Positions 15,901-21,900 of a stretch of 64,000 nt of DNA are shown in pieces. The first letter of the stretch is position 1. Each line of letters starts with the position of its first letter. The stretch is from Lingula anatina (taxonomy: Eukaryota; Animalia; Brachiopoda). A program made the position numbers and the translations under genes. The stretch spans positions 25,792,001 through 25,856,000 of the forward strand of contig CM120642.1 of NCBI GenBank assembly GCA_051362555.1. The letters run 5' to 3'. The notes under the pieces are model-generated. The model saw only the letters and a list, made by a program, of their open reading frames with translations. It had not been told where the DNA came from and did no database searches.

Positions 15901-18900
15901 ACTTTGGATCTAAATGTAGTGCCATCATCAGGGCTCAAGGCATAGCAGAAGATCTGGATATTTCAAATAAATATGAATGAAATAGTATCAGTAAACTTTC
16001 CAGTTTTTTAAAAACCATACATCTCACAATTTATTCTTGAGGACTTGTATGTGCCTCTGAACTTATACCCAACAAATATTTGAGACTTCGGGAATGTTGT
16101 ACACAGTTAAAAGGATTACTATTTCTATTCACGTTGCATATTAACATCACAATATTAGCTGCTTTTCTCTTCCCTCACCTCCACATTTTCCCTCTTATGT
16201 TCTCCAGGTATACTCTGCATCAGGTGAGAGGTAGGGTGGTTACCAAAGTCAGAGCTAAGGTAACCAATCCTAAGCCTCTCTCCTTCCAACTTGTGAGTGG
16301 GGTGCTGGTAGGGGGGCTTGTGCAACACATTGATCTGAACAGAGGATATTGTAGGCATGTTTAATACCACATTACATTGAACAGTTTTGTTTAAAATACC
16401 CGTTTCATTATCAATCATTATATTTATTATCAATCATTACTTCTGATAGCAGCCTTGGGGCAAGAAAGGAAACACACTGCAGTGCAGTTTTATTTACCAT
16501 AAGATCTTCGTGACAAAATTGACTAATTTGATCGAGGCACTAATTTTCTTACACATCCATATTGTACAGTCTTGAAGATTTACCTTCTCTAAGCACAAGT
16601 TAGCATGTTTTGCAGCAATGGCCTTCCTCTGTTGATGTGTCAGTGGGTAGAGCATACTGTGGTGTGGGTGGACAGAGGGCAGCCTGTTCTTTTGTAACTG
16701 ATCCTCTACTATCTGGACCAGACGCTTCATCCTGGCATCGTAGTCTGTCCAGTCACATGTAATCTAAAATGAAAATATGACAAATTTAAATAAATTACTG
16801 AACCTTATCCCATGTAAAAGAGCATTAAGGACAAAAAGTTAGCTCAACTCAAAACCTTATTCAAAGCAAATAATTTTTATATGGACATAAATTGCCTTTA
16901 AATTTCCTTCCATTTATTGACATAAAAAATTGACGACTGGCAAAATCAGTTTACTCAGGCAAAAATAACAAATAAAAAAAATCCTCAAAATGAAATTACA
17001 GATGTTCTTCAAGTATATACTAACCTGAAGGCAATGAGCCAAATTACAATAAGCATCTGGAAAATCTGGTTTCAACTTCAGAGCAGTTCTGTAGGATGAA
17101 ATGGCTTCAGGGATATTCCCAGAGTCCTGAAAACATGGGATTCAGTTTAGTACATTTTACAACTCAAAAGTAAGACATGCCCTATTCAATTCTGCATGTT
17201 AATGCAATAGCAAATCTAAGCAGCGTCTAATACAGAGGCATGTACATCCACAAAAAAGTTTCTGGTACATACTTGCTCATACAAATATCACTTAAATTTT
17301 CTTTGTTACCTTGTGGATAGACGCCAGATTGCTGTGTGCATCAGCAAAGGCAGGGTTTATCTGTATGGCTCTGGTGTAGCACTGCAAGGCTCCCTGGATA
17401 TCCTGCATCTCCTTCAGGGTGTTGCCCATGTTGGAGTAGGCATCAGCAAATGTGGGAGATATTCTGAAGACACAGTCATCATACAAAACACTGAACAACA
17501 TACTTAAACTTAAGGACACCCTCTAAAATCCTGCCAATCTAGACACTTTCAATTTTAGCCTAAATATAATTATGATTTAATAATTGCACAGCGATGATAA
17601 TTTTGATCTCACTCTGCCTTGGTATGTTTAAGCCATTTGCTTTAATATCATATTTGAAAGCATCAATTTTTCAATATTTTTTTTTCATCCACAATAATAA
17701 CCTTAAATTTCAAAGTATCAAATGGAAAAAGCACCACCAGCATGTTTAAATGGTTAAACATTATCCAGTAAGAGTGAGCAGAACTTTGTAAATTGACCAA
17801 TATCTCTTTTGTCTAGATTAACAAGGTTTTATACACTGCATTTATTCCACATCAGGCTAAAAGTAACTATTCCCAAGTTGCAAAACTGACCAACTGTGAT
17901 TCACTTGGTGGCTAACATTTTTTTTACATGGATAACCATTTAAATACAAAGAACATTGTACCACACGATTTGTATTCAATATTAACCATTACACTCTTGT
18001 TTTTAAGTTTCAATTGTAATATTATTTTAACATGTGAAGGTTTTGCAACCCCTAGTTTATAAATCCTGTCAATACCTAAGCATGAACTATCTAGTTATTG
18101 ACAACTAAAACAGTTAAGATCACTTCAAACAATAGCTATGCAAAAGACTTAAAATCAACACTGAGACTACTCATTTATTAATTCATTTTTCTTTTATTTG
18201 GAGGGAGGGAGGGGGGGGGGATCAATTTACTTGGGAACAACACAGGGAATTTTCTATGTAAAGGCCTCAGAATTTTGAAGATTGTTATGATAAAAAACAC
18301 AAAGAAACAAACAAATAATGGAGCATCTTGAAAGAATAACTGTGCAATTCCACTCAATCACATATGACAATTTGCAAAATTACTGCAACCCAGTGCTGAT
18401 TTTAAGTGATATAACAACATACACCCAATCAAATTCTAAGCCAGCAGTTGAAAGAAATAAAGATTGTAGCCAGTCTTAGCTGCTGGAGTGACAACAGCAT
18501 ATTTTCTTCACTTTGCAAAAAAAAGTAACAATTTTACATTTAAGCTTTTTCTTTCACGTTTTTTTTTTTTATAAATATATGAAATCAAAGCATTTCCAGC
18601 TTTTTAGATACAAAAACTTTTCTTAGCAGCTTCAAAATTGACACCCAAACATAGCTACTTCCTGAAATAACACACAATTGATAAGACTTAGAAAAGAGAT
18701 ACTATTAAAAGCCACCTATCAGCTTACAACTACAGTTAGCTGTTAATTTCTAAATAGTGTAATAATATAAATCCAGTGTCATTCATCATCCCTTTGGGCA
18801 AAATCTCTGCTATGTACGGATACCTGATTGCTTCCTTGTAATGCATAAGGGCATCAGTGAGTTTGCCCTGCTGCTGTAAGATGCTGGCAAGGTTGGAGTG

Positions 18901-21900
18901 AGCAGCTGCAAATTCAGGAAACACCTGCCAAAACAAACATACAGCATGCACCCTTACTATACACTGTGTTATCTACTACTGGGCTTGGGAGATTTCTTTA
19001 TCACCAAGTCTCTCCTCGTCAGCATTCAGATAGGGAAATATCCTAGTAGCTCCTCTGGCTCTATAGCAGGGTCACATGAAAAGCTGCAGGGAAGTTCTGA
19101 TCATTTCCTATCATCCCACCCCCAGAGACCCAGGCCTTTCTCAGCCACCACTGTCCAACACTACCACATGGAATACAGCCACAGGAAAGTGTACGAAACT
19201 TAACTGATCTTACTAAAGCACTGAAGCATGGCCAGTTGTTTCACTCCAGTAGTGGTGCACAGTGGTACTATGGGGACCCAGCTTGCAGGGAGCTCTACCA
19301 GCAGAAATATCCCACGAGAATAGTGTGCAATACTTCTGCCTTTCTCCCTGTCACGCTGGGTTTACTACCCTGGGACATCAATGGCCAAATGACCAGCCAT
19401 CACTACCTGATAGCCTCCTTGTAGTGCATAAGGGCCTCGTGGAGCTTGCCTTGTTGTTGTAAAACACTGGCCAAATTGGAGTGAGCTACTGCAAATTCAG
19501 GGTACACCTGAAACACGCAGGAGCAGGGGGAAAACATTCAGAGGTTGTTCAAGGTAAACAACATGTCCTGAAATCAAGTCATCTCATCTCACAAGCAAGA
19601 AGAAAAAAGTATCTTTCTTTTTAATTGTAAAATCAGAGAGACAGTTCAAGTAAAGGGAAGTTCAGTTATGGTCCAACTATACCTGTTCCACCAAATGATA
19701 TCCAAAGGGTCCTGAAACTTTTCTACAAAAAGTGCACACGCAAAGATTGCCTTTAGTTTTCAATCTTTCTGTAGAATAATTGTTTTGGAAAATAATTTCA
19801 ATGTCACTTTATTCATCTATCAAAATTCAGATTTTCTATCTACAAACAAGGACCAATGTTTAAAATGGCAAATCCATCTGGAATCATACCTCCAAAGCCT
19901 TCAGGTAGAGCCTGACAGCTTCTTCAGTGTGTCCTTGCTCTCTTTTTATATTGGCTAGATTGTTTAATGAATCTGCATGGGTTGGACACAACTTCAGGGC
20001 AGTGTTGTAGCATTTCTCTGCTTCAGCAACCTGAAAAATGTTTATCATTAGTTTGCCTTCTTTGCAAAGAAATTTGCAAAACAAATAAATCCCAAGTTTA
20101 TCCACTTAATACATAGCTTACATTTTTGACAAACAAAGGCTTTGTTTTTTAACATCACCAAGATGTTAAGTGACATTACCAAAAACAAATATTATAATTT
20201 TTTTCCATGGGGTTTATGTTATATTACCTGCACTTTCTCTTTCAAAGCATTAGCCAAATTGCAGTATGCATCAGGGAAGTTTGGCTGCAGCTCAATTGCT
20301 CTTCTATATGTGTCAATAGCCAAGTCTATCAATCTTGAAAAAGAAACATCATGGCCTTGATTAAAACAAACTTAGCTCTAAGAATTAATCATACACTAAT
20401 TTTATCTGACTGCATGTTATTTCTTTAGACAAATTTTTGCAATAACATACTTTCTTTCAACATTTTAATCAAGTTCAAATCACCATTTACAAAACAGGAA
20501 CAGTTCTGCGCTTAGTTTTGACTTACCCCTGTTCATAGTAAACACAAGCCAAGTTCCCATGAACTATAGCATGGTTTGGACTTAGACTAAGGGCTCGCAG
20601 ATAAGCTGCAACAGCTCTGCAAAAGAGTGACACATTGCATCACATTCTGCATGTTAAATAAAGCAACCTCATGGGATTTAGAGGTTAAGTAGTAAATATA
20701 CAATTCTTAATAAAAGAGATTTCACAATTCTATGTATGCATCCAACCAACCTGAAAGTCGAGACCTAAATGCTATATATGAATGTTACAGCAATTTCTAT
20801 ATAGTCCACCTACCTGTCAAAGATCCTAGCTTCTTTTAAGACATTGCCTAAATTGATATACGCATCTAAGAAACTTGGGTCTAGAGCCACTGCCTAAATT
20901 GAAACAAAAAAAAAAATTATTTTTTAAAACATGTTTATAGTAGAAGCGCAAACATTACTATTTTAACATTAAAATGCTATTTTTCTTTTTAACATATTCA
21001 AATATGATGTCCTTTTGGTAACCAAGCCACAAAAACTATACTTACTTTTTCAAAGTGATGAATTGCCAGCCATATTTCTCCTTGTGCGTTAAACACACAT
21101 CCCAGATTACTCCAAGCTACAGCAAAGTTGGGTTGAGTCTCTATGGCTTTTAGATAACATGCCTGGTGTGGGTGGGTCCATATCCCAAAGGTTGGCACAG
21201 GGGGGTTCAGGTTACAACCATTCAGTTGGATCCAGTGTGGAGTGGAGGAAGTGAGAGGAGGTAGAAGTGACAGAGGGACAGACAGACAAAGAGAGAAAAA
21301 AGAAAAAAGAGAAAAAGAAGTATATTAGACATGGTAAAATTGCCAGTTTGTGACAGCGTCTGCGTGGTTGAGAGCGTACGCATGCGCGGGACGCAGCGCG
21401 GACTTGTATGTGAGACCAAAACAAACCATGCTCAGACGGTTAACTATTTCTAATACATACAATGAACTGATAATCAACAACAGCTACAATCTGTGAGACT
21501 TAGGTTTATTGTGCTCTCAACAGTCAATAATGCAGCAGTGTGGCAACCTCCCTCCCAACGCTGGTAGCAGCTCGCAGCGCACCACGCTCTTTGCAGAAAG
21601 GCAAAAATCCTGAATTCAAATCTTTTTTTCTTCAAACTTCATAAACATTTACTGATAAATACCATTTTGAGCCAGTCTCCCACTTATGCAATTTTATCCA
21701 AAAACATGTTGAATAATTTGGTTTTTCCCAAAAATAGATTTCAAATAAGAGAAATGTCCCAAACGGAGTGTTTTATGGTGCCAAACCTGTGTGAATTTCT
21801 GTCGAAACTTTGCGAGATATTTCTGCAGTGTTCACTTGGGTCGACTGACTGATAGTTCAAACCATAGGCATCTTGCATGTTAGGGCTACAAACCCCAATT

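Follow-up and report, generated by a model that had tools for sequence, protein, structure and literature searches.

Mutually exclusive tandem copies of a TPR11 exon in the OGT gene of the brachiopod Lingula anatina

A complete OGT gene of the brachiopod Lingula anatina lies on the minus strand of a 64,000-nucleotide (nt) stretch of contig CM120642.1 (GenBank assembly GCA_051362555.1, positions 25,792,001 to 25,856,000 of the forward strand; hereafter the window), and one of its TPR exons is present as two tandem copies, 10a and 10b, that are spliced either-or. OGT is the cell's only O-GlcNAc-adding enzyme; how this single protein selects thousands of substrates is an open question, with the lumen of the proximal TPRs as the main suspect, and the isoforms known to date only shorten the repeat array.

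Results

The gene extends from an ATG at window position 25790 to a stop at 12995 (12995–25790, minus strand), with 22 coding exon positions, the tenth of them duplicated, in a stop-free exon chain for 1,023 amino acids. Judged from its translation it is an animal OGT (family GT41), with an Asn-ladder TPR array followed by the catalytic lobes: the 10b form is identical at 1,022 of 1,023 residues to the annotated L. anatina OGT XP_013387388.1, the Lingula protein is approximately 78–83% identical to OGTs of other animals and the exon matches human OGT chains in the PDB. The annotated protein, which is the sole member of its 90% cluster, contains 10b alone and lacks 10a.

Exons 10a (19407–19507, minus) and 10b (18824–18924, minus) lie between two constitutive exons, exon 9 (19890–20030, minus; 141 nt, ending in phase 0) and exon 11 (17310–17463, minus; 154 nt, accepting phase 2), and are set apart by introns of 382 nt (9–10a), 482 nt (10a–10b) and 1,360 nt (10b–11). 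Each copy is 101 nt long, is bounded by AG..GT sites, leads from phase 0 to phase 2 and is free of in-frame stops; at 79% identity they make up the region's highest-ranking direct repeat (107 nt, 80%). Their 21 nucleotide differences amount to 10 synonymous codons and five residue changes, with Tyr2, Val7, Val15, His23 and Glu24 (numbered within the exon) in 10a and Phe2, Ala7, Ile15, Thr23 and Asp24 in 10b. Including both exons leads to a stop at amino acid 425, including neither to a stop at amino acid 348. An earlier reading of this DNA made from its letters alone (the sequence-only reading) had given the coordinates, lengths, splice sites and fit between exons 9 and 11, the frame shift on including both or neither and the tally of synonymous and residue changes, and all of these proved exact. 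The pair shares with clusters of mutually exclusive exons (MXEs) their similar sequence, equal length, common frame and canonical splice sites.

RNA reads were taken from eight of nine runs bearing the same species label (X6 excluded), with 6–30% of each run read; for X3, X5, X8 and X9, junctions are tabulated only where some run has at least three reads. Summed over the eight runs, the junctions carry 46 reads for 9–10a (X1 11, X4 8, X7 2, X2 7, X3 12, X5 5, X8 0, X9 1), 33 for 10a–11 (X1 4, X4 6, X7 1, X2 7, X3 3, X5 8, X8 1, X9 3), 201 for 9–10b (X1 18, X4 26, X7 32, X2 22, X3 29, X5 23, X8 20, X9 31) and 116 for 10b–11 (X1 16, X4 17, X7 23, X2 16, X3 10, X5 4, X8 16, X9 14), that is, 79 for 10a and 317 for 10b, and no junction read fitted two places. 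Each copy is thus joined to both flanking constitutive exons, bridging the other copy, and 10a junction reads occur in all eight runs (a single read in X8). The joint between 10a and 10b has four reads in X1, none in X2, X4 and X7, and is not among the rows shown for X3, X5, X8 and X9; a junction skipping from exon 9 to exon 11 appears in no run among the rows listed, for which at least three reads were needed. With co-inclusion rare and joint skipping unlisted, and both giving premature stops, these counts show that both isoforms are spliced, either-or.

Mutually exclusive splicing had been put forward by the sequence-only reading, which proposed junction counting and named as contrary outcomes an exon without reads, routine co-inclusion and the decay of one copy in relatives. 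Reads were found at all four junctions, on both sides of both exons; in the rows listed, co-inclusion amounts to the four reads in X1; and both copies are intact in the only other locus that holds the pair, described below.

Exon 10b is the dominant form, at 72% in two studies and 94% in a third, the share of 10a being 44 of 155 reads (28%) in P1, 27 of 97 (28%) in P2 and 8 of 144 (6%) in P3. On the upstream junction alone, 10a accounts for 43 of 161 against 3 of 86 reads (Fisher P = 2e-6, with mates that are not independent). Introns a–b and b–11 reach a read depth of up to ~6 in X1 and X2, where an intron-11 bin has 0. At the low depth of X1, X2, X4 and X7, 10a has no variant site and 10b one weak one, against 21 in 673 nt of flanking exons, a scarcity that is suggestive only.

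A metagenome scan found 137 relatives, of which 80 loci were kept and compared, and just one of these, a contig of another animal (L055), holds two copies of the exon. Copy a (345–445 of the contig) has Tyr2, Val7, Val15 and His23, and copy b (766–866) has Phe2, Ala7, Ile15 and Gln23; both are 101 nt long between AG..GT sites, in the same order as in Lingula and followed by exon 11 at 1124, and co-inclusion again shifts the frame. The L055 animal is only distantly related to Lingula: its OGT shares 79% identity with Lingula's over 353 amino acids, compared with 80–83% for molluscs and annelids, and several introns have been gained or lost. Trees left it unplaced, on a long branch among the 53 rows of a quick tree and unresolved in a careful one of 26 rows drawn from those.

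The four exons group by copy. Amino acid differences number 3 for a–a, 5 for b–b and 5–9 for a–b, and the nucleotide four-point distance sum is 45 for grouping by copy versus 59 and 59; of the 10 informative sites, 8 sort by copy (4 of them purely synonymous), 1 by species and 1 is crossed. Between Lingula and L055, dN is 0.053 for a–a and 0.117 for b–b, with dS at 2.0 and saturated, and the two L055 copies are themselves saturated, differing at 20 of 25 synonymous codons. The same pair in L055 and a dN far below dS for each copy agree with the suggestion of the sequence-only reading that the duplication is old and that both copies are under purifying selection. The low dN also lends indirect support to both isoforms being made as proteins. 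From these comparisons, the duplication very likely predates the split between Lingula and the L055 animal. Copy-specific synonymous states are distributed at random with respect to Val7 and Ala7 in 36 single-exon loci, without tracking, and are therefore unusable for dating the copies.

No second copy was seen in the other 79 loci. Two coral-like loci (L075 and L080) have an Ala7 exon flanked by both introns; in 35 annelid-like Val7 loci, many of them redundant, the exon is fused to exon 11, and in one bivalve-like locus (L012) a Val7 exon is fused to exon 9. L055 is the only Val7 locus that keeps both introns.

Homolog searches and cluster look-ups yielded 330 OGT proteins, 304 with the exon motif and 26 without the exon or motif. 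Position 7 is binary across the 304: 187 have Ala and 117 have Val. His23 is present in 109 of the 117 Val7 proteins and in 3 of the 187 with Ala7, and Phe occurs at the labile Tyr/Phe position 2 in 16 of the 117 Val7 proteins. All Val7 proteins with visible species names are spiralian (many names are not visible): gastropods, bivalves, cephalopods, a chiton, Owenia, Ridgeia, Lamellibrachia, Tubulanus and Trichobilharzia. Named holders of Ala7 are arthropods, nematodes and deuterostomes, plus cnidarian-like rows and Lingula's 10b, the sole named spiralian protein with Ala7. In 10 mollusc clusters the exon is found in 78 of 92 listed members, with Val7 in 78 of 78. The 10a peptide occurs unchanged in 60 of the 330 proteins, the named ones molluscan, and the 10b peptide is matched only by Lingula's own. 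By residue comparison, then, 10a is the mollusc, annelid and nemertean form, with Val at human A352 and His at Q368, and 10b keeps the Ala of other animals, being outgroup-like at positions 2 and 7; in molluscs, annelids and nemerteans, no form was found other than the one that is minor in Lingula. Annotated pairs of a and b isoforms were found in none of 30 protein clusters.

Two observations on other OGTs stand apart from the exon 10 pair. Two Owenia fusiformis proteins (CAH1776946.1 and CAH1776945.1), both of 1,030 amino acids, differ only at residues 154, 159 and 160, outside the duplicated exon 10, possibly reflecting another duplicated exon (in the exon 4 region) or alleles. Several molluscs (Mizuhopecten, Bulinus, Mactra, and venerid and scallop clusters) have two OGT gene models with adjacent locus tags, all Val7, which suggests tandem whole-gene duplicates.

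In the protein, the exon corresponds to human residues 356–388 of the full-length chain 7yea_A and covers the loop ending TPR10 together with helices A and B of TPR11 (model helices 348–360 and 364–377; helix limits are from a single-sequence AlphaFold model with a TPR pLDDT of ~80 and a catalytic-half mean of 48, of which only the TPR part was used). The sequence-only reading had placed an asparagine-ladder Asn in this exon and aligned the V/A site with the Asp of the following repeats. Alignment to human OGT bears out both: the Asn is N366 (N356 in the 1,036-residue numbering) of TPR11, and the V/A site, four residues before it, falls in a column that is Asp in 7 of the 11 repeats listed, including those before and after TPR11, and Ala or Val in TPR11 itself. 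Ala/Val, a conservative change, is the only one of the five differences in the lumen-facing column. In general TPR geometry, Val/Ile15 packs between the helices, and Tyr/Phe2, His/Thr23 and Glu/Asp24 lie on the outside. The predicted outcome is one lumen change and three surface changes between the isoforms.

Ala or Val would occupy the single gap in the proximal aspartate ladder, a helix turn away from N356, a known binding hotspot and the Asn that anchors substrate backbones, and Val would leave a substrate side chain a narrower pocket. The outer surface would be altered by His/Thr and Glu/Asp, where helix B begins, and by Tyr/Phe in the loop between repeats. D386 and D420 are ladder aspartates, and TPR10–11 may have a 'latch' role. 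The ladder aspartates have been described as gatekeepers of substrate choice, most strongly in TPRs 9–13 (10.1101/2020.12.22.423982). N366 lies in TPR11 (PMC10618255), and the single change N356A makes HCF-1 peptide binding weaker by over 5 orders of magnitude and lowers global glycosylation (PMC11440498). From this position in the repeat we infer a functional difference between the 10a and 10b isoforms.

Exclusion of one copy by the other is probably achieved by frameshift and nonsense-mediated decay (NMD) helped by RNA structure. Joining 10a to 10b would be possible for the spliceosome, and NMD probably clears the joined transcripts, which contain a premature stop. An exon length not divisible by three and a premature stop on co-inclusion hold in both Lingula and L055; in human MXE clusters, PMC5740500 reports lengths not divisible by three for 60%, with frameshift and NMD as a safeguard for many. 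Hairpins on both sides of 10a would weaken 10a and set the isoform ratio. Just upstream of its acceptor, the 3′ part of intron 9 (19508–19650, minus) is structured (z = −3.6, 0 of 200 shuffles) and a candidate repressor of 10a; behind its donor, from intron position +6, structure is predicted at 19270–19406 (minus; z = −4.3, 0 of 200 shuffles). Both windows were picked after viewing the folds, and a scan of 104 intron windows serves as the control: the four best-folded are two in intron 4, then one on each side of 10a (z = −4.0 and −3.8), the third-ranked overlapping 19508–19650 and the fourth being the structure behind the 10a donor.

The a–b intron as a whole (18925–19406, minus) has 48% GC versus 22–38% in the other 21 introns and a z of −2.1; a search of 17300–23800 gave no credible Rfam match, and therefore no small nucleolar RNA lies behind the GC-rich intron. 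An 18-base-pair (bp) imperfect stem within it (19147–19266, minus; arms 19147–19164 and 19249–19266) gives a window z of only −1.6, and in a scan for perfect helices the intron is not above chance (175 of 200 shuffles as good). In L055 the a–b intron has a 16-bp stem that 0 of 200 shuffles match, unrelated in sequence to Lingula's. Cross-exon pairing around b reaches 12 bp in L055 but only 9 bp in Lingula, where shuffling the a–b intron yields best helices that are at least as strong. Exclusion by steric hindrance, which needs less than ~50 nt from donor to branch point, was rejected: the intron has 482 nt, the best branch-like motif lies 98 nt before the 10b acceptor and joined reads exist.

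Further features of the locus lie outside the pair. Long intron 4 (21163–23662, minus) shows partial retention in RNA and contains an 85-nt exon (21911–21995) with an in-frame stop that is spliced in (in four runs, 19 reads from exon 4 to the cassette, 7 from the cassette to exon 5 and 40 directly from 4 to 5), as well as the two most structured of the 104 intron windows (z = −7.5 and −4.7). At its 3′ end (21163–21330), a GC-rich stretch of raised read depth precedes a pyrimidine-poor acceptor, and this end resembles the end of vertebrate intron 4 that supplies the mitochondrial OGT N-terminus. The intron with its cassette seems to be the brachiopod version of the vertebrate detained intron or poison exon, whose silencer is reported as conserved only to jawless fish (PMC5588854). 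At exon 13 (16584–16763), 20 reads of run X5 have a start bearing several apparently synonymous differences versus 8 that are reference-like, probably a divergent haplotype because a neighbouring site shows the same ratio. By eye, a head-to-tail array of near-identical repeats of ~120 nt lies downstream of OGT (~8100–10150), and a gene on the plus strand (~26500–31560) stands head-to-head with it, one exon of which (~31440–31550) looks like beta-thymosin.

Discussion

We consider it probable that 10a and 10b form an either-or tandem duplicate giving two full-length predicted OGTs that differ at five TPR11 residues, the pair being likely ancient and probably kept exclusive by frameshift decay and RNA structure around 10a, and that the swap would adjust how the TPR lumen binds substrates or partners. 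Several findings weigh against this. On function, the exchange of Ala for Val is mild, other animals do well with only one of the two residues, and an N366 mutation is without effect on OGA binding (PMC10618255). On regulation, no convincing docking and selector pair for competing RNA pairing was found in Lingula or L055, and the low-10a study P3 used the animals most divergent from the reference, so that regulation and population are inseparable. On age, the pair is known from two animals only, one of them unplaced on the tree, and no intronic sequence common to the two was found; the loss of 10b in molluscs and nemerteans rests on protein annotations, not genomes; and the Lingula copies differ at 10 of 27 synonymous codons versus 16.2 expected from codon usage (P ~ 0.01), when the exons of 33 other animals differ from 10a at 52% or more of synonymous codons, more than the Lingula pair does. 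This low synonymous distance suggests gene conversion or a younger age.

For the history of the pair, we give an even chance to a duplication on the spiralian stem, after which b would have kept the ancestral Ala and disappeared from several lineages. An ancestral single 101-nt exon with Ala7 and both introns, as in the coral-like loci, would have been duplicated in an early spiralian; copy a, released from constraint, would have fixed Val7 and His23 and mostly Tyr2, and copy b would have retained Phe2 and Ala7. Molluscs, annelids, nemerteans and flatworms seem to retain only a, Lingula and the L055 animal both, and the annelid-like fusion of exon a to exon 11 is what an mRNA-templated intron loss deleting b would leave. 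We favour this course because a site otherwise fixed per group changed just in the clade that holds the duplicate, and the annelid fusion would erase b.

The same splicing could have a younger history, which we regard as somewhat doubtful, in which Val7 and His23 appeared first in a single spiralian exon, the duplication arose on a branch of Lingula and L055 (lophophorates, for example) and b reverted to Phe2 and Ala7 and lost His23. Such a course does without repeated losses in flatworms, molluscs, annelids and nemerteans, in whose proteins no Ala7 form was found, and it suits both the lability of Tyr/Phe and the closeness of the Lingula copies at synonymous sites; it would however take reversions at up to three sites, one of them otherwise invariant within each group, and it fits poorly with the saturation of the L055 copies and with an L055 protein that is no nearer to Lingula than to molluscs and annelids, though on a long branch.

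Returning to the stem duplication, we offer a wider scenario more tentatively still: an exon duplication at the base of Spiralia may have let an otherwise invariant Ala beside a key ladder Asn become Val, creating a second lumen that most phyla fixed, with Lingula and at least one other lineage toggling between ancestral and derived forms by tissue or stage. If true, this would be the first case in which splicing switches the substrate selectivity of OGT, and it would show a kingdom-wide substitution at a living intermediate stage.

It is unlikely, in our judgement, that the isoforms are near-equivalent and the duplicate is kept as a dosage device in which co-inclusion and slow splicing of the flanking introns feed decay, like the poison exon of OGT intron 4. 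OGT dosage is indeed controlled by unproductive splicing (PMC7261177 and PMC5588854), 10b is the next exon in 4 of the 8 X1 reads that splice out of 10a, and introns a–b and b–11 retain reads in X1 and X2; yet exon 11 is the next one in 33 of the 37 such reads listed over all runs, and a 10a peptide identical to that of molluscs, with copy-specific residues common to Lingula and L055, points to selection on each protein. Two independent duplications with convergent residues seem improbable: tandem exon duplication recurs often (PMC5740500), L055 is unplaced and its introns have no sequence in common with Lingula's, but order and the three diagnostic changes (2, 7 and 15) are the same, and synonymous sites group 4 by copy versus 1 and 1, with states that are random in the 36 single-exon loci. 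That two haplotypes were wrongly assembled one behind the other, or that one copy is dead, for which one could cite the highly polymorphic animals and an annotation with 10b only, is ruled out by junction reads, since reads join 10a to 10b and cover the intron between them, both copies are used inside single runs, their 21% divergence compares with ~3 variant sites per 100 nt in flanking exons and the pair recurs in L055.

The pair offers full-length enzymes identical except for five residues of the N356-bearing repeat, each conserved over deep time, and thus a natural pair ready for glycoproteomic comparison that points to human A352/A362 as a position of interest. It would also be a clear example of an exon that was duplicated and of which one copy then became fixed throughout lineages, would explain why mollusc and annelid OGTs stand apart from those of all other animals at this site, and corrects the Lingula annotation by adding 10a.

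Mutually exclusive homologous exons are a known device, PKM 9/10 among them; what is new here is an unannotated, deeply conserved, expressed pair in OGT. No report of duplicated or mutually exclusive OGT exons was found in the literature searched, with most subscription papers outside its scope, and OGT is not named in the human MXE atlas (PMC5740500), as represented by its main text and 10 text supplements, which may be incomplete. ATE1 7a/7b (PMC7797038), U2AF1 3/Ab, OGDH 4a/4b and SCN-alpha 5a/5b are likewise tandem same-frame duplicates with one major and one regulated minor form, and ATE1 too is a protein-modifying enzyme. Competing RNA pairings are proven for ATE1, and OGDH relies on distant branch points; neither feature was found for the OGT pair. 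Unlike in these pairs, the unit exchanged in OGT is a single solenoid repeat, of which one version or the other appears fixed in whole phyla. The detained intron and poison exon of OGT intron 4 (PMC5588854 and PMC7261177) similarly represent splicing control with NMD-bound side products, but that vertebrate device sets OGT amount rather than sequence and lies at a different position of the gene. The human isoforms ncOGT, mOGT and sOGT (13.5, 9 and 2.5 TPRs; PMC12645433) alter the TPR domain of the same gene by truncating the array, whereas in Lingula the length is constant and TPR11 is exchanged for a paralogous version. Comparable too are the engineered Asn- and Asp-ladder mutants of human OGT (10.1101/2020.12.22.423982; PMC11440498), in which changes to the proximal TPR lumen shift substrate choice; these remove Asn or Asp, whereas the Lingula switch keeps the Asn and changes the Ala at the gap in the ladder, a position not named in the text searched.

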